From: Bacteroidales bacterium
GTDB lineage: Bacteria > Bacteroidota > Bacteroidia > Bacteroidales > WCHB1-69
Direction of reading: 5' to 3'
Length of the DNA: 64,000 bases
Assembly: GCA_017554325.1 (NCBI GenBank)
Contig: JAFZIP010000005.1
Span: 197,385-261,384 of the forward strand
Of this stretch, positions 2,621-28,787 are shown piece by piece (positions within the stretch are counted from its first letter, which is position 1; each line of letters starts with the position of its first letter). Below the pieces are notes generated by a model. The model was not told where the DNA came from, made no database searches, and saw only the letters and a program-made list of their open reading frames with translations. The translations under genes and the position numbers were made by a program.

Positions 2621-3268
2621 TTAATCTTTCACTCTGAAATTCAGCACCTGGAGGAAATCCCGGATGTCGGGGTTCTGTTCTTCCAGATTCTTCATTTTAT
2701 CATCCGAACTGTAGATGATTTTCTTCATCTCCATATTCTCATTCACAATAATCTCCAAATCATCCACATTGGTGGTGAAGTGGTTTCTCCAGTACTCCAG
2801 CACCGCCCGCTTGCGCATCTCGAACTGGTCTTTCTGAAAATCATTCAGCACCTCAGCCTTGATCACGCCATCTTCCAGCGTCGGGACCTTGTCTTTGAGC
2901 GGATGGTAGATCATCGGTGTGTTGGAGAACAGTTCATCGAAAAGCTGTTTCCAGCAGGTCTCGAAAACCTCCGGTTCCTGGGCCGGGGCCTCGGCCGTTT
3001 TCTCCGCGGCGGGTGTTTTTTCAGCGGCAGTCAACTGCTGGCCAGCAGTCTCACCTGTTGCAGCGGGTTGCGGGTCGGGGTTCTGCTCCGGCGTCGCGCT
3101 GGCCGCTTGGGCGCGCGGTGTCTCCAGCACACTCTGAATGGACGGGATCGGCTTTATGGGCGGCGTGCCCGGATACTTGAATGTCTGGTTCGAGATTTGC
3201 GGCTTATCGGAAAATGATACGGCTGCCGTACCCGTTTCCGTGGTGGATGCCGTCCCACCCTCTGGGTT
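2621..3268 (-). CDS. dnaX: dnaX, tau-specific C-terminal segment, in the +1 frame relative to the N-terminal ORF
   Basis: This frame is open from 3316 down to the stop at 2621-2623. It encodes a P/A/E/T-rich linker and then a globular C-terminal region (...FETCWKQLFDELFSNTPMIYHPLKDKV...). The only in-frame start codon is a GTG at 3130, so it is unlikely to be an independent gene. Confidence 0.7.
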   Translation of the reverse strand, partial: NPEGGTASTTETGTAAVSFSDKPQISNQTFKYPGTPPIKPIPSIQSVLETPRAQAASATPEQNPDPQPAATGETAGQQLTAAEKTPAAEKTAEAPAQEPEVFETCWKQLFDELFSNTPMIYHPLKDKVPTLEDGVIKAEVLNDFQKDQFEMRKRAVLEYWRNHFTTNVDDLEIIVNENMEMKKIIYSSDDKMKNLEEQNPDIRDFLQVLNFRVKD

Positions 3269-4394
3269 ATTTACGCTCCTGCGATTGCCTCGCCTTCTTA
3301 TAGACGTAATTGGCGTTTATCTGCAAGAGGCACAACTCCACCGATAGTCGCTTGTTGTTGGACATCTTGTAGTTGAAGTCGCACTGGTTGGCGAGTTCCA
3401 TCGCACGCAACAGCAGCTGTTTGTCCACTTTCTGCGACTGTTGCAGCAGCTGGCCTTTGATATTGTCGGAGGTCTCCAACAGCTGCACGGTGGCCGGGGT
3501 CTTGGCCATCAGCAGGTTGCGGAAGTGAGCGGCCAAGCCTGCGATGAAATGCTGGGCTTCAAAACCTTTGGCCAAAATGTCGTCTAACAACAGCAAGGCT
3601 GGCGACGGATCATCGTTGAACAGGAAATCCGTGATCTTGAAGTAGTTGTCCACATCCAGGACGTTGAGATTCTCGATAGTGGCCTTGTAGGTAATCTGCT
3701 TGCCGGTGAAGCTCACCAACTGGTCGAAGATGGAGAGTGCGTCGCGCAGAGCTCCGTCGGCCTTCTCAGCCACCACGTGCAGGGCCTCTTCCTCGGCGGA
3801 AACGCCCTCCTGCTGGGCCACATACTGCAAGTGGCGAACGATGTCCTTCTCGTTGATACGCTTGAAGTCATACACCTGGCAGCGGGAAAGGATGGTAGGG
3901 ATAATCTTATGTTTCTCGGTGGTTGCCATGATGAACTTGGCATACGCGGGCGGTTCCTCCAGCGTCTTCAGGAAGGCGTTGAAAGCGGCACCCGACAGCA
4001 TGTGGACCTCATCGATGATATAGACCTTGTACTTGGCCCCTTGCGGCGGGATGTGCACCTGTTCCACCAGCGAGCGGATATCCTCCACGGAATTGTTGGA
4101 GGCCGCGTCCAGCTCGAACACATTGAACGAGGCCGAGTTGTTGAACGACTGGCACGAGTCGCACTCGTTGCAGGGCTCACAATCCTCTGTCAGCTGCCGG
4201 CAGTTGAGGGCCTTGGCGAAGATACGCGCACAGGTGGTCTTGCCCACCCCTCGCGGCCCGCAGAAGAGGAAAGCCTGCGCCACCTGGCCGGTTTTGATGG
4301 CATTCTTCAACGTGGCGGTGATAGACTCCTGCCCCACCACAGAATTGAAAGTGGTAGGCCTGTATTTTCGGGCGGAAACGATAAAATTATCCAT
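3267..4394 (-). CDS. dnaX: DNA polymerase III subunit gamma/tau, N-terminal clamp-loader domains I-III (375 aa to the TAA)
   Basis: MDNFIVSARKYRP..., Walker A GPRGVGKTTCARIFAKALNC, a Zn module CxxCxxCxxC, Walker B IIDEVHMLS and the sensor SRCQ. I moved the start to the ATG at 4394; the track start at 4430 adds 12 unlikely residues. Confidence 0.9.
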   Translation of the reverse strand: MDNFIVSARKYRPTTFNSVVGQESITATLKNAIKTGQVAQAFLFCGPRGVGKTTCARIFAKALNCRQLTEDCEPCNECDSCQSFNNSASFNVFELDAASNNSVEDIRSLVEQVHIPPQGAKYKVYIIDEVHMLSGAAFNAFLKTLEEPPAYAKFIMATTEKHKIIPTILSRCQVYDFKRINEKDIVRHLQYVAQQEGVSAEEEALHVVAEKADGALRDALSIFDQLVSFTGKQITYKATIENLNVLDVDNYFKITDFLFNDDPSPALLLLDDILAKGFEAQHFIAGLAAHFRNLLMAKTPATVQLLETSDNIKGQLLQQSQKVDKQLLLRAMELANQCDFNYKMSNNKRLSVELCLLQINANYVYKKARQSQERK

Positions 4395-4499
4395 ATTGCA
4401 ACCTTTATAAAACGAGCCGCAAATATACAAAAAAAGGGTTCCTCTTCCAAAAGAACGGAGGTATAAAATTTTTTATATTTTTGCACGTTTTGATATACT

Positions 4500-5423
4500 A
4501 TGGTTAAGAAGAGTTTCAAGTTATTGATTATAATACTGTTAACTGCTTCTGCGGGGGTCTATGCCGCAGACTTTCCTGCGTGTGTTTCGGTATGTTCCAT
4601 CCAAAACACGCAGCCAGGAGACACTGTTCCCGGCAAACAGGCGAAGCCAAAGAAGTCCAAGACCTCCTTCGCGGGCAAGAAGGTGACGTTCGAGAACTTC
4701 GACCAGCAGTACGAGCGCGCCATGCGTTACTACAACAACCAGCAATACCTGTCTGCCGCAGGCCTGTTCGAGGACCTGTATCCGCTCTCCTTGGGCACTC
4801 CCCGCGCCGACACCATCCTCTTCCTGTTCGCCCACTCCTACTACATGAACGGGGACTACGAGATGGCCGCCTTCCATTTCCGCGACTACGTGCGCCGCTA
4901 CCCCAACACGGAGCGCACCGAGGATGCCTTCTACTACGGCACCTCCGCCATCTACAAGACCAGTCCGGACTATTCGCTGGACCAGAGCAACACCGAGTAC
5001 GCCATCGAGCAGATCAAGGCCTTCATTGACGCATACCCCAACAACTCCCACATCGAGGAGTGCAACACCATGCTGGACGCCCTGCGCCTGAAACTGGCCC
5101 GCAAGGATCTGGAGATGCTGATTCTATACTACAACACCGACCACTACGAGGCCTGCCAGATTGCGGCCAAGAACTTCTTCAATGAATATGCATACTCCCC
5201 TTTGATGCCGGAAGCCATCTACTATCTGGTGCTCAACAACTACGAATATGCACGGAAGAGTGTGGAGCGCAAGAAAGAGGAACGCTACAAAGCCTGCCTA
5301 GATGCTTGCAACCGGCTGCTTCTCAACTATGAGGAGACCAAGTACACCAAGGAAGTGGATAGAATATCCAAAGAGGTACAGAAACAATTATCGAAATACA
5401 ATAAAAATTCACAAAATAATTAA
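4500..5423 (+). CDS. bamD: Outer membrane protein assembly factor BamD (TPR lipoprotein)
   Basis: Signal peptide plus a TPR-like region (YERAMRYYNNQQYLSAAGLFEDL..., FRDYVRRYPNTERTEDAFYY...). The bamD-rpoZ-coaBC-recN neighbourhood is typical of Bacteroidales. Confidence 0.8.
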   Translation: MVKKSFKLLIIILLTASAGVYAADFPACVSVCSIQNTQPGDTVPGKQAKPKKSKTSFAGKKVTFENFDQQYERAMRYYNNQQYLSAAGLFEDLYPLSLGTPRADTILFLFAHSYYMNGDYEMAAFHFRDYVRRYPNTERTEDAFYYGTSAIYKTSPDYSLDQSNTEYAIEQIKAFIDAYPNNSHIEECNTMLDALRLKLARKDLEMLILYYNTDHYEACQIAAKNFFNEYAYSPLMPEAIYYLVLNNYEYARKSVERKKEERYKACLDACNRLLLNYEETKYTKEVDRISKEVQKQLSKYNKNSQNN

Positions 5424-5429
5424 CAGATA

Positions 5430-5762
5430 ATGAAAGCTGCAGATTACAAGAAACTGAAAATCGACCTTTTTGCCAAAACGAAAGACATCAGACAATACGA
5501 CAAGGAGACCGACAACTTCTACAAGAGCATTGTGATCATGTCCAAGCGGGCAGACCAGATTGCCGCCGACCTGAAACAGGAGTTCCAGGAGACTTCCCTT
5601 CAATACGCCTCCAATTCCGACACCTTGGAAGAGGTTTTTGAGAACCGCGAGCAGATTGAATTGTCCAAATTCTACGAGCAGCTCCCGAAGCCGACCCAGC
5701 TGGCCTTGTATGAATTCGAGAACGACCAGGTTTATTTCAAGGATCCCGAAGCCAACGAGTAA
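5430..5762 (+). CDS. rpoZ: RNA polymerase omega-like (Rpb6-type) small subunit
   Basis: 110-aa acidic protein in the conserved position between bamD and coaBC. The call rests on size and synteny more than on motifs. Confidence 0.55.
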   Translation: MKAADYKKLKIDLFAKTKDIRQYDKETDNFYKSIVIMSKRADQIAADLKQEFQETSLQYASNSDTLEEVFENREQIELSKFYEQLPKPTQLALYEFENDQVYFKDPEANE

Positions 5763-5768
5763 AAAGCC

Positions 5769-6965
5769 ATGTCCGCGAAGCACATCGTTATCGGTATCAC
5801 CGGAGGCATTGCCGCCTACAAGTCGCTGACCCTGATCCGGCTGTTCAAGAGCAACGGCTACGAGGTCAAGGTGGCGGCCACGCAGCACGCCCTGGAGTTC
5901 GTGACCCCGCTCACCATCGAGACGCTGTCGCAAAACAAGCTGTATGCGGACATGTTCGCTGCAAGCGTAACCCGTGACGTGGAGCACATCAGTCTTGCCG
6001 ACTGGGCAGACTGCATGGTGGTAGCGCCTGCCACGGCCAACATCATCGGCAAGTTCGCGCACGGCATCGCCGACGACGCGCTTTCCACCCTGCTGCTGGC
6101 CACCCGCAAGCCCATCTTCATAGCACCTGCCATGAACGACAAGATGTTTGAGGAACCCACCGTGCAGCACAATATCGACCTGCTACGCCAGAAAGGTTGT
6201 CACATCATCGACCCGCAGAGCGGCTTTCTGGCCTGCGGAAGCACCGGCACCGGCCGGATGGAGGAACCCGAGAAAATCTTCACCATAGTACATCAAACCC
6301 TATCGGTTCCCCAGCGTCTTGCCGGCAAGAAAGTGATGATTACCGCAGGGCCCACCTACGAGCCCATCGATCCCGTGCGTTTCATCGGCAACCACTCCTC
6401 CGGTCTCATGGGCTTCTGTCTGGCCGAGGCCGCAGCCGAGGAGGGAGCAGAGGTCACGCTCGTCACCGGTCCCACGCATCTGACATGCAGCCATCCTGGC
6501 ATCCGCCGGGTGGACGTAATGACAGCCGGAGAGATGTTCGAGCAGTGCATGGCCATCGCCGAGCAGCAGGACATCATGATCATGGCGGCTGCAGTGGCGG
6601 ACTTCACGCCCGCACAGGCTGCCCCGGAGAAGATCAAAAAAGAGCACGACTCCCTTGACCTGCACTTGGTGAAGACCCGAGACATTCTGGCTACCATCGG
6701 CAAGCAGAAACGCAACGACCAATTGCTCATCGGCTTCGCTTTGGAAACAGAACATGAGGTGGAGAACGCCACCAAGAAACTGCATACTAAAAACGCGGAT
6801 GTCATCGTTCTTAACTCACTGCGTGACAAAGGCGCGGGCTTCGGCACCAGCACCAACAAGGTGCTCATGCTCACCCGAGACGGCCAGACGCACGAAAGCG
6901 AACTGAAAGACAAACATGCCATCGCCAAGGACATCTTGGACGTGGCCTGCTCCATCATCAAATAA
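5769..6965 (+). CDS. coaBC: Bifunctional phosphopantothenoylcysteine decarboxylase / phosphopantothenate-cysteine ligase
   Basis: N-terminal flavoprotein domain (IVIGITGGIAAYKS, PAMNDKM) followed by a C-terminal ligase domain (ITAGPTYEPIDPVRFIGNHSSG). Confidence 0.92.
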   Translation: MSAKHIVIGITGGIAAYKSLTLIRLFKSNGYEVKVAATQHALEFVTPLTIETLSQNKLYADMFAASVTRDVEHISLADWADCMVVAPATANIIGKFAHGIADDALSTLLLATRKPIFIAPAMNDKMFEEPTVQHNIDLLRQKGCHIIDPQSGFLACGSTGTGRMEEPEKIFTIVHQTLSVPQRLAGKKVMITAGPTYEPIDPVRFIGNHSSGLMGFCLAEAAAEEGAEVTLVTGPTHLTCSHPGIRRVDVMTAGEMFEQCMAIAEQQDIMIMAAAVADFTPAQAAPEKIKKEHDSLDLHLVKTRDILATIGKQKRNDQLLIGFALETEHEVENATKKLHTKNADVIVLNSLRDKGAGFGTSTNKVLMLTRDGQTHESELKDKHAIAKDILDVACSIIK

Positions 6966-6980
6966 AAAACCGAAACAACA

Positions 6981-7886
6981 ATGAAAAGACTCTGTCTGCT
7001 GCTCCTCCTTGCCCTGTTCTGCGGATGCCTGTTCGCACAAGACTTCCAATGTCAGGTGTCGGTGAACGCAAACCAGGTGACCGGCGGCGTCAACCAGCAA
7101 AGATACAACGACCTGCAACAAAAGATTTACCAGTTCATCAACGACCGCAAGTGGTGCCAGTACAACCTGAGAACCAACGAGCGTATCGAGTGTTCCCTCA
7201 ACATAAGCCTCTCGGAAGTGAGCGGTGATGTCTATAAGGGAAGCATGGCCATCTTGCTGCAGCGTCCGGTTTACAAAGCAAGCTACAAAACCACTTTGTT
7301 GAATTTCCAAGACAAGAACATCCAATTCACCTACGCGGAAGGCGACCCGCTGGAGTATGCCGACAACGTGAACCTCAACCAGTTCACCGCGCTCATCGCC
7401 TACTACCTCAACCTGTTTTTAGCGGTTGAGTTCGACAGTTTCTCCTTGTACGGCGGGGATCCATACTACGCGAAATGCCAAAGCATTGTCAACCTGAACA
7501 CCAGTGCCAAAGAGAAGGGCTGGTCGGTGGCTGACAATGGACAAAGCAACCGATACTGGATTATTGAGAACCTCACCAACGGCACCTACAGCAAGCTGCA
7601 CGATTTCTTTTACCAGTACCACAGACTGGGACTGGATGTGATGAACGAGACTCCTGATGCCGGCCGTGCCGTCATATTGGAAAGCCTACGTCTGCTCCAG
7701 CAGGTAAATTCACAGAAATCAGGTTTGGCACTGGTCAAGATCATCGTGGCGGCCAAGAGCGACGAAATCGTCAACATCTTCAAGGAGGGTATGCCCAGCG
7801 AGAAGACACAGGTCATCAACATCATGAAGCAGCTTGACCCTACCAATTCCTCCAAATACGACGCCATCAACACCGCCAGCAAATAG
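6981..7886 (+). CDS. DUF4835-like secreted protein (conserved partner upstream of recN in Bacteroidales)
   Basis: 301 aa with a signal peptide. The family assignment comes from remembered synteny and sequence flavour only. Confidence 0.5.
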   Translation: MKRLCLLLLLALFCGCLFAQDFQCQVSVNANQVTGGVNQQRYNDLQQKIYQFINDRKWCQYNLRTNERIECSLNISLSEVSGDVYKGSMAILLQRPVYKASYKTTLLNFQDKNIQFTYAEGDPLEYADNVNLNQFTALIAYYLNLFLAVEFDSFSLYGGDPYYAKCQSIVNLNTSAKEKGWSVADNGQSNRYWIIENLTNGTYSKLHDFFYQYHRLGLDVMNETPDAGRAVILESLRLLQQVNSQKSGLALVKIIVAAKSDEIVNIFKEGMPSEKTQVINIMKQLDPTNSSKYDAINTASK

Positions 7887-19579: not shown

Positions 19580-19587
19580 TATTTTTG
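19580..19587 (+). promoter_or_regulatory. -7 promoter box (TATTTTTG) driving the riboswitch-controlled transcript
   Basis: TAnnTTTG match 8 nt upstream of the riboswitch P1 stem. Confidence 0.55.
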
Positions 19588-19594
19588 CCGCGTT

Positions 19595-19747
19595 ATACGG
19601 TATGAAGGACAATTGTCCTTCTGGGAAACAGGTGCAAATCCTGTACAGTACCCGCTGCTGTGAATCTCAGCTGTTTTCAAAAAATGATGTCACTGTCGTA
19701 AGATGGGAAGACGTTTTGAAAGAGACAAGTCAGAAGACCGGCCGTAT
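19595..19747 (+). promoter_or_regulatory. Cobalamin (B12) riboswitch aptamer
   Basis: P1 pairs ATACGG (19595-19600) with CCGTAT (19742-19747). The conserved core is GGGAAACAGGTGCAAATCCTGTACAGTACCCGCTGCTGTGA, and the B12 box is AGTCAGAAGACCGGCC (19728-19745). Confidence 0.85.
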
Positions 19748-19834
19748 CACATGTTGTTAACCGCTTCGGGAAATAGGCGGGCCATATATGCCACCGGTTT
19801 TCCAAGCATTGTTTAATCGTAAAATGCCGTGGTA

Positions 19835-20940: not shown

Positions 20941-21018
20941 AAAAAAACGAGAGCTTTCGCTCCCGCTTTGGATGTTTTCACAACGGAATAATCCTTATTG
21001 TGAATTGCTTCAAAAGTG
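20941..21018 (-). ncRNA. tracrRNA: tracrRNA of the type II-C system
   Basis: The minus strand reads ACUUUUGAAGCAAUUCACAAU | AAGGAUUAUUCCGUU | GUGAAAACAUCCAAAGC | GGGAGC-GAAA-GCUCUC | GUUUUUUU. The anti-repeat (20997-21017) pairs over 21 bp with one bulged U to the first 22 nt of the CRISPR repeat (GUUGUGAAUUGCUUUCAAAAGU). It is followed by a nexus of the AAUAAGGnnnnnnCCGUU type, as in other Cas9 tracrRNAs, and by a GNRA-capped terminator hairpin plus a U-run. Confidence 0.85.
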
Positions 21019-21021
21019 CAG

Positions 21022-21029
21022 CAAAAATA
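21022..21029 (-). promoter_or_regulatory. -7 promoter box (TATTTTTG on the minus strand) for tracrRNA
   Basis: TAnnTTTG match immediately upstream of the anti-repeat. It predicts a transcription start at about 21015-21018. Confidence 0.6.
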
Positions 21030-21094: not shown

Positions 21095-24000
21095 ATGAAG
21101 AAAATCCTCGGTTTAGATTTGGGCACCAACAGCATCGGCTGGGCGGTGGTGAATGAAGCGGAAAACGCTAATGAACAATCTGCTATTGTCAAATTAGGCG
21201 CGCGCGTGAATCCATTGACGGTGGATGAACTGACCAATTTCGAAAAGGGAAAAAGCATTACGACCAATGCGGATCGCACCCTCAAACGGAGTATGCGACG
21301 CAATCTGCAACGATACAAACTTCGTCGCGAGAATCTTATTAAAGTGTTGAATGAGCACAGTTTCATCGACGAAGAAACGATTCTTTCTGAAAATGGCAAC
21401 AGGACTACTTTTGAAACATACCGGTGGCGTGCCAAGGCTGCGACAGAGGAAATTTCTTTACAAGAATTTGCTCGCGTGCTGCTCATGATTAACAAGAAAC
21501 GAGGGTACAAGAGCAGTCGTAAAGCGAAATCAACCGAAGAAGGACAACTGATTGATGGAATGGAGATTGCCAAACAACTCTATGAGAAGAACCTCACTCC
21601 GGGACAGTTATCATTACAGTTGCTGCAAAATGGAAAAAAACACCTTCCGGATTTCTATCGTTCAGACTTGCAGGAAGAATTTGACAGGGTTTGGTGCTCC
21701 CAATGCAAGTTTTATCCAGACAGACTAACAAATGATCTAAAAGAAGAATTGTGGGGAAAGAATAAAAAGCAGACATGGGCAATTCTTGAGAAACCATTGA
21801 ATATAGTTGGTATAAGGCGAGAGACAAAAGGAGCCGAATTAAAAGAGGAGAACTATAGATGGAGAAACAAAGCGTTGAATGAACGATTGGATTTGGAAGA
21901 ATTAGCTATCGTTTTGCAGGAAATCAATGGTCAGATTAGTAATGCAAGTGGTTATTTGGGAGATATTAGCGACCGTAGCAAGGCACTTTATTTCAATCAT
22001 CAAACGGTCGGTCAATATCAGATGTCGCAATTGGACAAGAATCCCAATTACAGCTTGAAGAATCAGGTGTTTTATAGACAAGATTATCTGAATGAGTTTG
22101 AAACTATCTGGGAAACACAAGCAAAATATCATAAGGAACTTACTTCAGAACTAAAAAAAGAGATTCGCGACATTGTCATTTTTTATCAGCGTCCACTGAA
22201 ATCGCAAAAAGGATTGATATCGTTCTGTGAGTTTGAAAGCCGACAAGTCGAAGTGGATATTGATGGGAAGAAGAAAATGAAAACTGTTGGCAACCGAGTC
22301 TGTCCAAAATCATCGCCTTTGTACCAAGAATTTAAAATATGGCAAATTTTAAATAATGTTCAAGTTTCAGGTGAAGGCATTAAAAAACGATTCCTGTTCC
22401 AGGAAGAAAAAGAGAAACTGTTTGCCGAATTGAATCACAGGGAAAAATTATCAAAAACAGAAGCCCTGAAACTGCTGTTTGGCAATCCAAAGAATTTGGA
22501 TTTGAATTATAAGGAACTTGACGGAAATCATACTCAAGCAGAATTGTTCAAAGCATATCAGTCTATCATAGAATTAAGTGGACACGGAGAATATGAATTT
22601 GCTAAGTTGCCTTCAGGAAAGGCTCTTGACATCGTTTCGGAAATATTCGATGGATTAGGTTTTAGTACAGCTATCTTGCGTTTTGATTCCTCGCTGGAGG
22701 GTCAGGCTTTGGAGCGCCAGCCCATGTACATGCTTTGGCATCTACTTTATTCTTTTGAAGGCGATAATTCTAATCTTGGCAATGAAAAATTGATAACTAA
22801 ATTGGGCGAACTATACGGATTTGACAAGGAATCCGCAACAGTGCTAGCCAATGTGGTTTTCCAACCCGATTATGGCAGTCTGAGTACAAAGGCCATTCGA
22901 AAAATATTGCCTCATTTGAAGGATGGTTTGGAATACAGTGTAGCATGTGAATATGCTGGATATAGACATTCCAAAGCTTCGCTTACAAAAGAAGAGATTG
23001 AACAAAAAGAACTTAAGGATAAGTTAGAACTACTACCCCGTAATAGTCTTCGTAACCCAGTTGTGGAGAAGATCCTGAACCAAATGGTGAATGTGGTCAA
23101 CTCTATTGTCGATGAGTATGGAAAACCTGATGAAATTCGCATTGAATTAGCAAGAGAATTGAAGAAATCTGCCAAAGAACGCGAAGAAATGACCAAATCC
23201 ATCAACGAAGCCTCTCGTTTGCATGAAGGGTATGTTAAAATCTTGCAGGGAGAACCGTTCTATTTGGATCTTGTTAGCCGAAATGATATAATTCGATACA
23301 AATTATACTTGGAGTTGAAAGACAATGGTTTCAAAACGCTCTATTCCAACACATATATTCCTCAAGAAAAGCTCTATAGCAAGGAGATTGACATTGAACA
23401 TATAATTCCACAAGCCAAATTGTTTGATGATTCATTCTCCAATAAAACCTTGGAATTAAGGCACATTAATTTAGAGAAGAGCAATGCTACCGCATACGAT
23501 TTTGTGCTTGGTAAGTATGGGGAAGATGGTGTACGGGATTACGAAAATAGAATAGAAAGACTTTACAATGACAAAGTTATCTCCAAGACCAAGCGTGACA
23601 AGTTGTTGATGCGGGAGGCTGATATCCCGAGCGGTTTCATCAACCGTGATTTGCGCGACTCTCAATATATTGCTAAAAAAGCCAAAGAAATGTTGGAGGG
23701 AATGGTGCGTTTTGTGGTTCCGACAACGGGCAGTGTTACAGATCGCTTGCGAGAAGATTGGCAATTGGTAGATGTCATGCAGGAACTCAACTGGGACAAA
23801 TACAATCAATTAGGATTAACGGAGGTAATAGAAGGTCGTGACGGTCAGCGGATCAGGCGCATAAAAGAATGGACCAAGCGTAACGACCATCGACATCATG
23901 CAATGGATGCGCTGACCATTGCCTTTACAAAACGCAGCTTCATACAGTACCTGAACAACCTGAACGCACGCGTACAAAAGGGCACGGATGAGTATTTCGA

Positions 24001-25354
24001 TTTGGACATGGTGGAGCTTTCGGATTTAAGCGAAGAGGAACGTGCCTCTGCAATTTATGGTATTGAGAAAAAAGAACTACATCGGGATAATCATGGAAAA
24101 CTGCGATTCAATCCACCCATGCCATTGGATGAATTTCGTGCCGAGGCCAAACGGCAACTAGAAGGCACTCTGATTTCCATCAAGGCAAAGAATAAGGTGG
24201 TGACGCAGAACATCAATGTTTCGAAGAAAAAAACAGGTAAAAATGAAAAGATACAGCTGACACCTCGTGGTCAGTTGCACTTGGAAACTGTATATGGAAG
24301 TGGCAAGCAGTATGTAACTAAAGAGGAGAAAGTTAACGCTGCATTTGATGCTGAGAAGATTATGACAGTGGCTAATAAATCTTATCGTGAGGCATTGTCA
24401 AGCCGCTTGCAACAGTATGATGGAGATCCCCAAAAAGCTTTTACTGGAAAAAACACTTTGGAAAAGAATCCGCTTTGGCTGAATGAACATCATACGGCCA
24501 AAGTTCCAGAAAAGGTTAAAACCGTTTCTTTCGAAAAGATTTATACTGTTCGTAAAGAGATTTCGCCTGAATTGAAACTTGAAAAAGTGGTTGATGTGGG
24601 CGTTCGCAATATTCTTAAAGAACGGTTAGCTGAATTTGGCGGCGATGCCAAGAAAGCCTTCTCCAATCTGGAAGACAATCCGATATGGTTGAACAAGGAA
24701 AAGGGTATTTCAATCAAGCGTGTTACTATCACAGGCATCAGCAATGCTGAAGCTTTGCACGACAAACGCGATAAGGAAGGTAAACTGATTCTTGATGAAA
24801 AAGGGAACAAGCAACCTGTGGATTTTGTCAATACCGGCAACAACCACCATGTGGCCATCTATCGGAAACCCGTGTTGGATAAAAATGGGTTACCTTTGCT
24901 TGATGATGATGGTCAACCCCAATATGAGTTGGACGAGAATATAGTTTCATTTTACGAAGCCACTTCCCGAGCTATGATGGGTCTTCCCATTATAGATAAA
25001 GATTTCAATAAAGAACAGGGTTGGCAATTCCTCTTTACTATGAAACAAAACGAGTACTTTGTATTTCCGCGCTATGATGAAGAAGGAAATATGACTTTCA
25101 ATCCATTAGACTACAGCGAGGAGTGGTACAAAAATCCGGCTAATTACGCTACTATCAGTCCGAATTTGTTTAGGGTACAGAAATTATCTTCCAAATATTA
25201 TGTTTATCGGCAGCATCTTGAAACAGTTGTTGAAGAAAACAATTCTTTAAGAGATATTACGTGGAAAAGAATCACTAATATGAATCATCTGAAAAACATT
25301 CTCAAAGTCAGAGTCAATCATATTGGCAAGATTGTGTCGGTGGGCGAATATTAA
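21095..25354 (+). CDS. cas9: Type II-C CRISPR-associated endonuclease Cas9 (1419 aa)
   Basis: RuvC-I (MKKILGLDLGTNSIGWAVV), an Arg-rich bridge helix (RTLKRSMRRNLQRYKLRRENL), RuvC-II (IRIELAREL), HNH (DIEHIIPQAKLFDDSFSNKTLELRHINLEKSN) and RuvC-III (NDHRHHAMDALTIAF). I chose the ATG at 21095 as the start. Confidence 0.97.
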   Translation: MKKILGLDLGTNSIGWAVVNEAENANEQSAIVKLGARVNPLTVDELTNFEKGKSITTNADRTLKRSMRRNLQRYKLRRENLIKVLNEHSFIDEETILSENGNRTTFETYRWRAKAATEEISLQEFARVLLMINKKRGYKSSRKAKSTEEGQLIDGMEIAKQLYEKNLTPGQLSLQLLQNGKKHLPDFYRSDLQEEFDRVWCSQCKFYPDRLTNDLKEELWGKNKKQTWAILEKPLNIVGIRRETKGAELKEENYRWRNKALNERLDLEELAIVLQEINGQISNASGYLGDISDRSKALYFNHQTVGQYQMSQLDKNPNYSLKNQVFYRQDYLNEFETIWETQAKYHKELTSELKKEIRDIVIFYQRPLKSQKGLISFCEFESRQVEVDIDGKKKMKTVGNRVCPKSSPLYQEFKIWQILNNVQVSGEGIKKRFLFQEEKEKLFAELNHREKLSKTEALKLLFGNPKNLDLNYKELDGNHTQAELFKAYQSIIELSGHGEYEFAKLPSGKALDIVSEIFDGLGFSTAILRFDSSLEGQALERQPMYMLWHLLYSFEGDNSNLGNEKLITKLGELYGFDKESATVLANVVFQPDYGSLSTKAIRKILPHLKDGLEYSVACEYAGYRHSKASLTKEEIEQKELKDKLELLPRNSLRNPVVEKILNQMVNVVNSIVDEYGKPDEIRIELARELKKSAKEREEMTKSINEASRLHEGYVKILQGEPFYLDLVSRNDIIRYKLYLELKDNGFKTLYSNTYIPQEKLYSKEIDIEHIIPQAKLFDDSFSNKTLELRHINLEKSNATAYDFVLGKYGEDGVRDYENRIERLYNDKVISKTKRDKLLMREADIPSGFINRDLRDSQYIAKKAKEMLEGMVRFVVPTTGSVTDRLREDWQLVDVMQELNWDKYNQLGLTEVIEGRDGQRIRRIKEWTKRNDHRHHAMDALTIAFTKRSFIQYLNNLNARVQKGTDEYFDLDMVELSDLSEEERASAIYGIEKKELHRDNHGKLRFNPPMPLDEFRAEAKRQLEGTLISIKAKNKVVTQNINVSKKKTGKNEKIQLTPRGQLHLETVYGSGKQYVTKEEKVNAAFDAEKIMTVANKSYREALSSRLQQYDGDPQKAFTGKNTLEKNPLWLNEHHTAKVPEKVKTVSFEKIYTVRKEISPELKLEKVVDVGVRNILKERLAEFGGDAKKAFSNLEDNPIWLNKEKGISIKRVTITGISNAEALHDKRDKEGKLILDEKGNKQPVDFVNTGNNHHVAIYRKPVLDKNGLPLLDDDGQPQYELDENIVSFYEATSRAMMGLPIIDKDFNKEQGWQFLFTMKQNEYFVFPRYDEEGNMTFNPLDYSEEWYKNPANYATISPNLFRVQKLSSKYYVYRQHLETVVEENNSLRDITWKRITNMNHLKNILKVRVNHIGKIVSVGEY

Positions 25355-25386: not shown

Positions 25387-26217
25387 ATGAGTAACATCAA
25401 ATTATTTCAAGACAAAAAAATCCGTTCTTCATGGAACGAAGTAGAGGAGCAATGGTATTTTTCCGTGGTGGATGTGGTGGAGGCACTGACGGACTCTACC
25501 AATCCCACAGACTATCTAAAAAAAATGCGAAAGCGTGATGAGGCTTTGGCTCTCTACCTGGGGACAAATTGTCCCCTGGTAGAAATGCTGACAGATACAG
25601 GAAAAATACGTAAAACATTGGCAGCAAATGTTAAAACGCTTTTCCGCATCATCCAATCCATCCCGTCACCCAAAGCAGAACCCTTCAAGCTGTGGCTTTC
25701 CCAAGTCGGCTACGAACGACTGCAAGAGATTGAAAATCCGGAACTCGCTCAAGAACGGATGAAAGAACTTTATGAAAAGAAGGGCTATCCGAAAGATTGG
25801 ATTGACAAGCGCCTTCGTGGTATTGCCATCCGTCAGAATCTGACCGATGAATGGAAGAAACGAGGCATAACAGAAGAAACGGATTTTGCTATTCTGACCG
25901 CCGAAATATCCAAAGCAACCTTCGGTATGACCCCTTCGGAATACAAAGAATTCAAGGGCCTGACGAAAAAGAACCAAAATCTACGCGACCACATGGATGA
26001 TTTGGAGTTGATTTTCACAATGCTGGGGGAACGCGTCACCACCGAAATATCGCAAAAAGAAGAACCCGAAACCTTTGCAGAAAGCAAAAAGATAGCGAAA
26101 CGAGGCGGAAAGGTGGCTGGTGTGGCACGAAAGGAAACTGAAAAAGAATTGAGCAGAAGTGTTTCAACTCCAAATAATTTCCTGCCGCCTTCGAAAAAAG
26201 ATAAACCTTTAACATAA
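25387..26217 (+). CDS. Bro-N domain / DinD-like (DNA-damage-inducible protein D family) protein embedded in the cas operon
   Basis: The N-terminus has the Bro-N pattern (FQDKKIRSSWNEVEEQWYFSVVDVVEALTDSTNPTDYLKKMRKR). The C-terminal half resembles E. coli DinD as I remember it (TDFAILTAEIS...KGLTKKNQNLRDHMDDLELIFTML versus DinD ATDFAIFQNH...KGLKKNQKILDHMGSTELAANLF). It starts 32 nt after the cas9 stop and ends 1 nt before the cas1 ATG. Confidence 0.7.
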   Translation: MSNIKLFQDKKIRSSWNEVEEQWYFSVVDVVEALTDSTNPTDYLKKMRKRDEALALYLGTNCPLVEMLTDTGKIRKTLAANVKTLFRIIQSIPSPKAEPFKLWLSQVGYERLQEIENPELAQERMKELYEKKGYPKDWIDKRLRGIAIRQNLTDEWKKRGITEETDFAILTAEISKATFGMTPSEYKEFKGLTKKNQNLRDHMDDLELIFTMLGERVTTEISQKEEPETFAESKKIAKRGGKVAGVARKETEKELSRSVSTPNNFLPPSKKDKPLT

Positions 26218-26218
26218 T

Positions 26219-27486
<1,268 letters not shown>

Positions 27487-27613: not shown

Positions 27614-28108
27614 GATGTTTACGACTGCAAAGATACAAACTTTTGAAAGCAATTCACAACAAAACTCGATTGACAGAACGAACCAAATCGATGTTTACGA
27701 CTGCAAAGATACAAACTTTTGAAAGCAATTCACAACAGATGATGGAGGAATGCCACACACATTATCGATGTTTACGACTGCAAAGATACAAACTTTTGAA
27801 AGCAATTCACAACATGATAATGAACACTTGGAACCGCTTAATAGATGTTTACGACTGCAAAGATACAAACTTTTGAAAGCAATTCACAACTGGCCAAGTT
27901 ATTCGTCTTGCGCCTTTTTGATGTTTACGACTGCAAAGATACAAACTTTTGAAAGCAATTCACAACAGTATTTCTGCAACTCCTGAATTTGCATTCGATG
28001 TTTACGACTGCAAAGATACAAACTTTTATATAAGATTGGCGGCGCCTCGGCAAACCGAGCAAGCTCGTTTGCTCTCGGCTTGCGCAATCTTTGAAAGCAA
28101 TTCACAAC
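27614..28108 (-). CRISPR. CRISPR array: 6 repeats of 47 nt (minus-strand sense GTTGTGAATTGCTTTCAAAAGTTTGTATCTTTGCAGTCGTAAACATC) and 5 spacers of 29-30 nt. The sixth repeat is split by a 64-nt insertion.
   Basis: Repeats lie at 27614-27660, 27690-27736, 27767-27813, 27844-27890 and 27920-27966, all identical, and at 27997-28108 (31 nt + 64-nt insert + 17 nt). Spacers lie at 27661-27689, 27737-27766, 27814-27843, 27891-27919 and 27967-27996. The strand is assigned from complementarity to the tracrRNA anti-repeat and from the canonical GTTGTG repeat start. Confidence 0.95.
28028..28091. repeat. 64-nt palindromic insertion inside CRISPR repeat 6 (copy A)
   Basis: ATATAAGATTGGCGGCGCCTCGGCAAACCGAGCAAGCTCGTTTGCTCTCGGCTTGCGCAATCTT. 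The terminal inverted 7-mers are AAGATTG and CAATCTT, with internal hairpin potential. It splits the repeat between ...ACTTTT and TGAAAGC.... Confidence 0.85.
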
Positions 28109-28139
28109 CATCTCTCTTTCAGTATCGTTATGTTGAAGA

Positions 28140-28463
28140 CTATTTGGGAAGGTATTGCTCAATTAGCTTGTAGAAATCGGGTATCTCTTCGTCGAGGTTC
28201 CATGCAGTTTTTGCCCATGATGTAAACATCACCATCTGCAGATTGTATGGCATATCGAAGTCCTTAAACTTGTGAGCCACATAGGTGGCACATTCACCTG
28301 AGATTATTCCTTCATGCTGGATGTAAACCCTTTCCATATCCCAATACCAGGATGCTGGGAACATGTCAAATGGGCAGGTGTCCTCACCATTATAGTACCG
28401 GCACTGTTTCATCAACTCCAGTTTCGTCATATCCTTACTTTTTTGAGAGTTCATACATGTCAT
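28140..28463 (-). CDS. Hypothetical 107-aa protein encoded between two insertion-bearing CRISPR repeats
   Basis: ORF MTCMNSQKSKDMTKLELMKQCRYYNGEDTCPFDMFPASWYWDMERVYIQHEG...; I recognise no family. Its codon and amino-acid composition look protein-like (W/Y/F/M-rich, not low-complexity). The ATG lies 22 nt downstream of a TAnnTTTG box in the degenerate repeat, and the stop lies 31 nt upstream of repeat 6. Confidence 0.6.
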   Translation of the reverse strand: MTCMNSQKSKDMTKLELMKQCRYYNGEDTCPFDMFPASWYWDMERVYIQHEGIISGECATYVAHKFKDFDMPYNLQMVMFTSWAKTAWNLDEEIPDFYKLIEQYLPK

Positions 28464-28469
28464 TCACAA

Positions 28470-28583
28470 GGTGTTTTCAGACCACAAAAATACCAAACTT
28501 TTATATAAGATTGGCGGCGCCTCGGCAAACCGAGCAAGCTCGTTTTCTCTCGGTTTGCGCAATCTTTGAAAGCAATTCACAAC
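28470..28583 (-). CRISPR. Degenerate seventh repeat carrying the same 64-nt insertion (copy B)
   Basis: Plus strand: GGTGTTTTCAGACCACAAAAATACCAAACTTTT + 64-nt insert + TGAAAGCAATTCACAAC. The right 17 nt are identical to the repeat. The left part is diverged but alignable, and on the minus strand it keeps a TATTTTTG box (28485-28492). Confidence 0.8.
28503..28566. repeat. 64-nt palindromic insertion, copy B (2 substitutions relative to copy A)
   Basis: Direct comparison with 28028-28091 shows it is identical except G->T and C->T in ...CTCGTTT[G/T]CTCTCGG[C/T]TTGCG.... Confidence 0.85.
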
Positions 28584-28608
28584 TAGATATACGCACCAAG
28601 CATGAGCC

Positions 28609-28710
28609 CCTGCGTGCCGTTGGCACGCCATCCCATTAACCCCGCACAGCTTGTCTGTGTGGGGTAGCGCAACGGTCCTCCCTGTCAGCCTGCGTGCCGG
28701 AGGCACGCCG
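28609..28710 (-). repeat. Three-hairpin intergenic element (copy 1, inverted relative to the copy at 55829)
   Basis: Hairpins are GCGTGCC-gtt-GGCACGC, CCCCGCACAG-cttgt-CTGTGTGGGG and GCGTGCC-gga-GGCACGC. Its reverse complement aligns with 55829-55938. Confidence 0.75.
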
Positions 28711-28748
28711 TATCTTGAAGTCGCAATTTGCGACATCAAGAAAATCAC

Positions 28749-28756
28749 TATCTTTG
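28749..28756 (+). promoter_or_regulatory. -7 promoter box (TATCTTTG) upstream of uvrC
   Basis: TAnnTTTG match 32 nt upstream of the uvrC ATG. Confidence 0.5.
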
Positions 28757-28787
28757 CCACCTATTTCTATCCACCACAACCACCCAC

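Follow-up and report, generated by a model that had tools for sequence, protein, structure and literature searches.

The stretch analysed here, 64,000 nucleotides of a Bacteroidales metagenome-assembled genome (assembly GCA_017554325.1, contig JAFZIP010000005.1, positions 197,385 to 261,384 of the forward strand) and referred to below as the window, holds a complete type II-C CRISPR-Cas system, with cas9, cas1 and cas2 present and neither csn2 nor cas4 among the cas genes of the locus. An earlier note, made from the letters of the window alone, had described a protein-coding open reading frame (ORF) in a spacer position of the CRISPR array, between two interrupted repeats and on the minus strand, which is the sense of the CRISPR RNAs (crRNAs), and this is what we find. 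In the explanation that we consider probable, an intact gene on 361 bp of DNA from a Bacteroidales phage or mobile element was captured by recombination at the first, or 'extra', repeat of the array, in the oldest slot and in a strain-specific manner, and its repeat-driven expression and a 3' end of the extraneous crRNA (ecrRNA) type would be passive consequences of that position. The case combines foreign DNA inside an array, which is already known, with the ecrRNA concept.

The array, its split extra repeat and the strain comparison

Type II-C arrays carry a promoter in each repeat and receive new spacers at the last repeat; the first and oldest repeat is an 'extra' one, which yields an extraneous crRNA if transcription enters from upstream, and about 60% of extra repeats are mutated, mostly within the first 15 nt (PMC12080349). 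The array of the window lies at 27614-28583 with its crRNA sense on the minus strand. Read in this direction, the repeat is GTTGTGAATTGCTTTCAAAAGTTTGTATCTTTGCAGTCGTAAACATC; the 19 nt at its start (R1) pair with the trans-activating crRNA (tracrRNA), and its second half (R2) bears TATCTTTG, which fits the Bacteroidetes -7 box TAnnTTTG. Two repeats of the array are interrupted between R1 and R2 by a hairpin-forming insert of 65 nt, here called X, which is possibly flanked by a 3-nt AAA duplication at its ends. The features are as follows.

27614-27966, minus strand: five repeats of 47 nt in the canonical form (GTTGTGAATTGCTTTCAAAAGTTTGTATCTTTGCAGTCGTAAACATC), every one of them with a TATCTTTG box, and four spacers of 29-30 nt, at the cas2-proximal (leader) end
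27967-27996, minus strand: oldest genuine spacer, GAATGCAAATTCAGGAGTTGCAGAAATACT
27997-28024, minus strand: R2, the canonical promoter half of the proximal extra-repeat copy, containing TATCTTTG
28025-28089, minus strand: X, proximal copy, 65 nt, hairpin-forming
28090-28108, minus strand: R1, proximal copy, the 19-nt tracrRNA-pairing half and putative handle of an extraneous crRNA
28109-28139, minus strand: 31-nt tail 3' of the stop codon, a remnant of the gene's native 3' flank
28140-28463 (107 codons) or 28140-28430 (96 aa, probable true start), minus strand: the ORF
28464-28469, minus strand: start of the captured fragment, which together with 28462-28463 reads TTGTGAAT
28470-28499, minus strand: R2', the distal copy's promoter half, which has diverged, with TATTTTTG at 28485-28492
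28500-28564, minus strand: X, distal copy, with 2 differences from the proximal X
28565-28583, minus strand: R1, distal copy, adjoining the ancestral uvrC-side flank
28584-28787: structured intergenic flank between the array and uvrC, with hairpin repeats CCTGCGTGCC..GGCACGCC and a content that differs among strains

The proximal R1 shows no mismatch to any other repeat of the array, and the two R1-X copies (the distal one at 28500-28583) are 98% identical over 90 nt. The promoter halves have diverged far more, with 7 differences in 24 positions between R2' and the canonical R2 against 2 in 90 between the R1-X copies (Fisher p = 2e-4), the latter being comparable to the divergence among strains. 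Beyond its two copies in the window, X was found neither in 80 related Cas1 loci nor in IMG/VR or the JGI metagenome contigs, and R2' has no exact match as the repeat of another array in those contigs. Rfam returned nothing for X or for the tail, at gathering or permissive thresholds, the only matches being weak CRISPR-DR ones on the repeats. We also considered R2' as the gene's own phage promoter, given a loose resemblance in one relative (L008), and rejected this reading, as the tail of R2' matches the repeat at 17 of 22 positions beyond the consensus box. The split of the first repeat into R1, hairpin and R2 presents its tracrRNA-pairing and promoter halves as physically separable modules.

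Other strains of the same species were retrieved by their exact Cas2 and UvrC proteins, with the same synteny. In six of them (L102, L104, L107, L108, L109 and L110), whose arrays include one of 15 repeats (L102) and one of a single repeat (L104), the repeat on the uvrC side is always R1-X-R2, and both the ORF and the second R1-X are absent. X is thus constant in the first repeat throughout the species and has no relation to the gene; the interruption is the normal state of that repeat. The ORF unit occurs with five spacers in strains of the window type (L011, L103, L167 and four similar contigs) and in L012, and without ordinary spacers in L168, whose copy has 100% identity across 800 nt and is directly followed by the leader; the recurrence of one structure in these independent assemblies shows that it is not a misassembly. 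Since the distal copy retains the ancestral flank on the uvrC side and the proximal copy retains the array side, the strain types differ by 475 bp, a unit bounded by a direct duplication of 90 nt. The presence of this unit in some strains and its absence from six argue for a recombinational capture accompanied by a 90-nt duplication of the extra repeat, and the duplication of the split repeat around the piece points to recombination at that repeat. Capture of a gene by recombination between repeats was among the options of the earlier note and is the best supported of them, while its more exotic readings suffer from the absence of the junction in the six strains, an outcome that it had itself named as refuting.

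Two routes could have led to this arrangement, namely the single-crossover integration of a circle carrying R1-X, or an unequal exchange with the array of another strain. Judged from the sequences, the uneven divergence of the copies favours an exchange with a diverged array, or else an event of older date, after which most strains would have lost the unit through recombination between the R1-X copies.

The arrays without ordinary spacers take two forms. In L104 (4467-4578) a lone R1-X-R2 stands beside the leader, and in L168 (sense index 224-810 of 1561-2520) the array consists only of two split repeats around the phage gene. We considered whether L168 might represent the acquisition of a first spacer in a one-repeat array and discarded the idea, as the deletion of five spacers from a window-like array is simpler: repeats newly copied from R1-X-R2 would carry X, and the other repeats of the window are without it. 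The intergenic region between uvrC and the array is itself variable among strains, as seen in L108 (2562-3260), where the space from uvrC to the first repeat holds an 89-aa gene of the XRE type with a helix-turn-helix (HTH) domain and a TATTTTTG box of its own, in the crRNA sense and without a second repeat copy. In the window this flank (28584-28787) contains GC-rich hairpins, CCTGCGTGCC..GGCACGCC, in two copies, and the other strains compared (L102, L104, L107, L109 and L110) have about 160 nt more of hairpins.

A phage gene and its native flank

The ORF has 107 codons when counted from its first ATG (28463), while its homologues and the NCBI annotation begin at an in-frame ATG at 28430, which gives 96 aa. 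Close homologues number 13 (45-100% identity), a library clustered at 50% contains 66 remote representatives, mostly of about 100 aa, and the conserved motifs of the family include CRYYxGE..P, WDMER and MFTSWxK. Pairwise dN/dS (the ratio of nonsynonymous to synonymous substitution rates) ranges from 0.04 to 0.23, bearing out the coding potential that the earlier note had proposed to check, and an AlphaFold2 model predicts a five-helix bundle with a mean confidence (pLDDT) of 94.5. On the strength of the homologues, the dN/dS values and the fold model, the ORF is a genuine gene. Its protein has no match in Pfam, NCBIfam or PADLOC, none in the PDB by sequence or by fold (solved AcrIIC structures included), and a single one in PHROGs, to phrog_19606 (E = 2e-7, function not annotated), and the structural matches of the model are to uncharacterised Siphoviridae proteins only.

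The homologues place the gene in phages and mobile elements. In two phage genomes (L017 and L018) it adjoins portal, terminase and capsid genes, in L013 it lies inside an integrase-bearing element, in L001-L007 it belongs to islands with ADP-ribosylglycohydrolase, HU-HIG and methyltransferase genes, and in L008-L010 it stands alone among housekeeping genes. In the viral loci of IMG/VR the homologue directly follows an ADP-ribosylglycohydrolase gene in 50 of 55 cases and is convergent with a gene for a protein of about 1000 aa with an ADPrib_exo_Tox domain in all 55. These loci (L112-L166, approximately 3200-7200 in each) thereby present a tight module of the ADP-ribosylglycohydrolase, the small five-helix gene and the convergent, head-associated protein with its ADP-ribosyltransferase-toxin domain, and the conserved order of the module suggests that the small protein works with this pair of phage ADP-ribosylation enzymes.

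Linkage of the family to CRISPR was found at none of 21 homologue loci of other genomes (L001-L010, L013-L021), none of the 55 viral loci and none of the 80 related Cas1 loci, and no CRISPR repeat lies near the gene in the homologue or viral loci. The earlier note's suggestion of a CRISPR-linked accessory factor is not borne out by these counts; the gene is a member of a phage family, and, given its native phage context and the lack of a CRISPR neighbourhood elsewhere, the window copy is an orphan, detached from the conserved ADP-ribosylation module. In the host the gene may be a passenger.

The same data make it very improbable that the gene encodes an anti-CRISPR (Acr) protein or another modulator, that is, a small phage protein that would inhibit or tune Cas9 and whose level the array promoter would couple to crRNA expression. 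The small size and phage accessory nature of the protein, with a predicted novel fold, its position inside a CRISPR array and the array without ordinary spacers in L168 agree with such a role. The protein, however, resembles no solved protein in sequence or fold, AcrIIC structures included, and shows no similarity to a known Acr family in Pfam, NCBIfam or PADLOC; it has no neighbour with an HTH domain of the aca type, its conserved partners are ADP-ribosylation enzymes rather than anti-defence loci with known Acrs, the family is never adjacent to CRISPR elsewhere, and the window strain keeps intact cas genes and five spacers.

The captured piece measures 361 bp (28109-28469). DNA homology to L008, L017 and L001 passes the stop codon, spans all 31 nt of the tail and ends at the first base of R1. 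The flank that matches the tail is the ascending arm of a terminator (GAGGGATGCAGACGCACCCCTCTTTTT) in L008 and L017 and the start of the next gene in L001, and the window fragment is severed inside this native terminator, GAGGGATGCAGACGCACCCCTCTTTTT. From this sequence comparison we take the 31-nt tail to be the gene's native 3' flank and not a spacer; the agreement with one spacer length that the earlier note pointed out is an accident of where the break fell. As for the opposite end, the foreign DNA would begin right after R2', at about 28469, judging by its similarity to L017. The eight bases that directly follow R2' (28462-28469, TTGTGAAT) equal positions 2-9 of R1, with TTTGAATGGA at the matching place in L017, and this identity may be junction microhomology or chance. 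A near-identical donor phage was found neither by tblastn against INPHARED nor by a close-relative scan of IMG/VR, where the profile scan gave relatives at 43-51% identity only.

An unlikely alternative, which we rate low, is that the piece is a giant spacer, 361 bp of phage DNA inserted by Cas1-Cas2 in place of 30 bp at the split extra repeat, with duplication of that repeat and with the gene as an incidental passenger, in which case the last 20-25 nt could still guide against the donor phage. The phage DNA does fit one slot exactly, beginning where R2' ends and running up to R1; it is of mobile-element origin with repeats on both sides, both of them split by X, and the flanking repeat is duplicated, X included. 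Two related arrays described below are also in keeping with it, L042, whose cassettes are truncated at differing points directly against repeat ends, and L022, where the duplication comprises the repeat alone. Against it, the slot is 361 nt long where about 29-30 nt are expected, R2' differs from R2 far more than the R1-X copies do from each other, and the duplication in L097 measures 152 nt and reaches about 100 nt past the repeat, which is not expected from Cas1-Cas2 integration. The 37 spacers of the species yielded only chance matches of 15-16 nt in all fetched loci, so no protospacer adjacent motif (PAM) could be derived that would lend it weight. We know of no documented integration of prespacers as long as 361 bp, which also counts against this alternative. 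Finally, type II-C acquisition takes place at the end of the array opposite the oldest repeat (PMC12080349), whereas cargo is always found at the oldest end.

The fragment does not look like an insertion sequence or a transposon: it holds a single 96-aa ORF that is not a transposase, has no terminal inverted repeats and no short target duplication, and the duplication around it is 90 nt of the extra repeat. Mobile elements inside arrays have been described, among them an IS256 element in the type II-C array of Flavobacterium psychrophilum (PMC10309648) and Tn7-like elements that target repeats (10.1101/2024.10.13.618069). The window resembles these cases in that foreign DNA lies inside an array of which both parts can remain transcribed, and differs from them in that the fragment is part of a phage operon, truncated and without a transposase, and fills one slot between 90-nt duplicates of the extra repeat.

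A candidate repeat promoter, predicted tracrRNA pairing and a possible crRNA-like 3' end

The TAnnTTTG box that the earlier note had seen upstream of the gene is present in R2' as TATTTTTG (28485-28492), at 21 nt and not 22 nt from the ATG at 28463, and at 54 nt from the probable start at 28430. Every repeat of the window has a box of this form in the sense orientation, as do 48 of 51 consensus repeats from related arrays; none of the 51 has it in the antisense orientation. The handle that follows the stop codon and the 31 nt is likewise intact, with no mismatch over its full length, which is 19 nt rather than the 17 nt first given. It would pair with the following RNA.

~21016-20941, minus strand: tracrRNA (transcript ends inferred); its TATTTTTG box lies at 21022-21029 and its anti-repeat at 20997-21015, and it has hairpins and a terminator with a T-run

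The duplex predicted between the anti-repeat and a normal repeat has -31.0 kcal/mol, as befits a type II-C tracrRNA, and that with R1-X has -29.9 kcal/mol. In the reading of a captured gene that we prefer, the box of R2' would transcribe the gene in the crRNA sense, and the transcript would continue into the intact R1, the native terminator having been cut off. There R1 could pair with tracrRNA and be cut by ribonuclease III (RNase III), and the resulting mRNA would end in the manner of a crRNA, as an extraneous crRNA with the gene's 3' untranslated tail (...ATAACGATACTGAAAGAGAGATG, a candidate target sequence under this reading) for its guide. Transcription from the repeat promoter with an ecrRNA-type 3' end is plausible on these grounds, and the earlier note's idea of a transcript that ends like a crRNA accordingly looks reasonable as far as the intact R1 and the ecrRNA concept (PMC12080349) carry it, being itself drawn by inference. 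For the native flank upstream, the predicted folding energy is -37.9 kcal/mol per 109 nt, and for the gene tail it is -13.6, so the replacement of a structured flank by a weakly structured tail would promote the formation of an ecrRNA and not suppress it. A scan for sigma-70 promoters and terminators is uninformative for Bacteroidetes.

The closest known counterpart is the ecrRNA described by Feussner et al. in 2025 (PMC12080349). As there, the oldest type II-C repeat of the window retains a usable tracrRNA-pairing part preceded by non-spacer sequence, here the gene tail, and transcription entering from upstream would give a crRNA-like RNA; the extra repeats of related arrays, too, often keep R2 and mutate R1. 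The many first repeats in related arrays with a kept R2 and a degenerate R1, together with the sense-only TAnnTTTG box, agree with that study. Unlike the described cases, the window has a phage gene and a repeat-derived promoter that feeds into the handle, and the 65-nt insertion within its extra repeat falls outside the three mechanisms that the study describes. Repeat-embedded promoters are known from Neisseria, Campylobacter and Flavobacterium (cited in PMC12080349 and PMC10309648), where the promoter of each repeat drives the downstream unit as proposed here; the unit in the window, by contrast, is a protein-coding gene and not a 30-nt spacer.

It is highly improbable that the tail and R1 instead form a regulatory crRNA-like RNA of the CreTA, CRISIS or scaRNA type, which would repress a promoter, such as the one of the cargo gene, by directing Cas9 to it through partial pairing. 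A unit resembling a solitary repeat does lie beside a cargo gene in a CRISPR locus, as in the systems of CRISPR RNA-like RNAs (crlRNAs; 10.1101/2023.03.03.530964; 10.1101/2024.12.27.630466), and the window shares with CreTA and crlRNA/CRISIS loci (PMC9458426, 10.1101/2024.12.27.630466) the presence of toxin, defence or other cargo next to repeat-like units. In the window, however, the cargo sits between array repeats and not beside a mini-array, the described cases are mostly of type I where this one is of type II-C, and the tail is plainly the native 3' flank of the gene. The 12-nt seed GAAAGAGAGATG has no second match within the 64-kb window with 1 mismatch allowed, hence no complementarity between guide and promoter was found there.

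Gene cargo in related arrays and the rest of the locus

Arrays were detected de novo in the 80 Cas1-related loci, and 34 of these arrays have a visible 5' end in the crRNA sense. Protein genes occupy the first slot or slots in six of these 34.

L022: DUF2683 and YoeB pair; the flanking duplication is the repeat alone
L031 (7419-7715): 68-aa DUF2683 antitoxin-like ORF that fills a 202-nt slot exactly
L033: 136-aa protein, function not assigned
L042 (8639-11428): three successive old-end slots, two of them with related cassettes and the third with a PDC-S01 AAA_14/DUF4143 ATPase
L071: 140-aa protein, function not assigned
L097: RelE pair, 72-aa protein and PDC-S13 Bro-N protein
L056 (Bacteroides faecis, isolate genome; in addition to the six): insertion sequence (IS) remnant of IS110 in first-slot position

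The L031 ORF, which is without an accompanying toxin gene, has its ATG as the first base after one repeat and its stop as the TGA inside the GTTGTGA of the next. In L042, each of the two related cassettes consists of a truncated XRE gene and a gene of 79 or 81 aa, and they are severed at different points against the repeat ends. Counting the window as a seventh locus, all 14 non-IS cargo genes are in the crRNA sense (by locus, two-sided binomial p = 0.016), and no cargo gene was found in middle or leader-side slots among the 34 arrays. Our literature search found no published description of genes in spacer slots or of oversized spacers, nor of co-oriented cargo at the old end of arrays. On its own the case is a modest one, in which a Cas9 array trapped a phage gene fragment at its old end and crRNA-like mRNA processing is a plausible side-effect; the wider pattern, in which about one in six related Bacteroidales arrays holds whole genes in the oldest slot, oriented with the repeat promoters, is the part that deserves follow-up.

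Several points weigh against recombinational capture with passive consequences. The use of the promoter, the read-through and the processing are deduced from sequence features; with the best donor relative at about 85% DNA identity, the junctions are not fixable to the base; and the foreign DNA reaches from R2' right up to R1, an exact fit that Cas1-Cas2 integration produces more typically than ordinary recombination does. The uneven divergence of the copies (2 in 90 against 7 in 24, p = 2e-4) speaks against a simple recent in-place duplication, which does not explain it, and the strain comparison is unrooted, so that the difference may be a gain or a loss by recombination between the two R1-X copies. 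The recurrence of co-oriented cargo, lastly, suggests that the slot may be selected and not accidental.

This last point is the core of the main alternative, possible though doubtful, in which the oldest slot beside the extra repeat is a recurrent landing and expression site, a gene-capture platform, where mobile genes are kept in the crRNA sense for the repeat promoters. It overlaps with our preferred reading on the origin of the gene and differs on selection and function. The six arrays with first-slot protein genes and the IS110 remnant, the uniform orientation, the nature of the cargo (YoeB/DUF2683 and RelE pairs, PDC-S13, PDC-S01 and unassigned proteins), the L031 ORF that fits its slot from repeat to repeat and the conservation of the TAnnTTTG box in the repeats all accord with it. 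The ORF unit of the window is nevertheless missing from most strains and hence dispensable, and its gene is an orphan parted from its conserved phage partners; some cargo (L022, L042) has promoter-like boxes of its own, the orientation bias could reflect the loss of genes silenced by antisense transcription, and the sample comprises 34 arrays, mainly from metagenome-assembled genomes. A bolder version, which we regard as unlikely, joins such a capture and expression site to guide production: mobile genes would be attached to the extra repeat in the crRNA sense, perhaps through action of the adaptation machinery on long DNA, and transcription from the repeat promoter with 3' trimming by tracrRNA and RNase III would yield both a protein and a Cas9 guide against the donor.

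Integron cassettes offer a functional analogy only, as captured genes that are poor in promoters and lie in one orientation downstream of a resident promoter, at the fixed end of a repeat array; the window system, unlike them, is without an integrase, attC sites or evidence of cassette mobility, and only one to three slots are involved. Should the pattern hold in a full survey, arrays with promoter-bearing repeats would also store and express accessory genes, and they would provide a natural test bed for how extraneous crRNAs arise or are avoided and for whether Cas1-Cas2 can insert long DNA.

The other features of the locus are listed below.

21096-25354: cas9 (TIGR01865, E = 1.5e-152)
25387-26217, plus strand: Bro-N-domain gene, 276 aa, between cas9 and cas1, the only extra gene of the cas locus
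26219-27151: cas1 (PF01867)
27148-27486: cas2 (PF09827)
start 28788: uvrC, beyond the old end of the array

The Bro-N gene belongs to the PADLOC candidate defence family PDC-S13 (E = 9e-119) and to phrog_15286. It is retained in all strains of the species and is found at the equivalent position in L023, L024, L025, L031 and L032, with pseudogenes standing there in L094 and L051, and a PDC-S13 relative is the array cargo noted in L097. We considered it as a candidate for PcrIIC1, which is a PIN-domain nuclease (PMC12669027), and excluded this assignment, the gene being of the Bro-N/PDC-S13 type without a PDB sequence match. A cobalamin riboswitch (RF00174, 96 bits) at 19581-19760 on the plus strand, upstream of a gene starting near 19829, is unrelated to the array finding.

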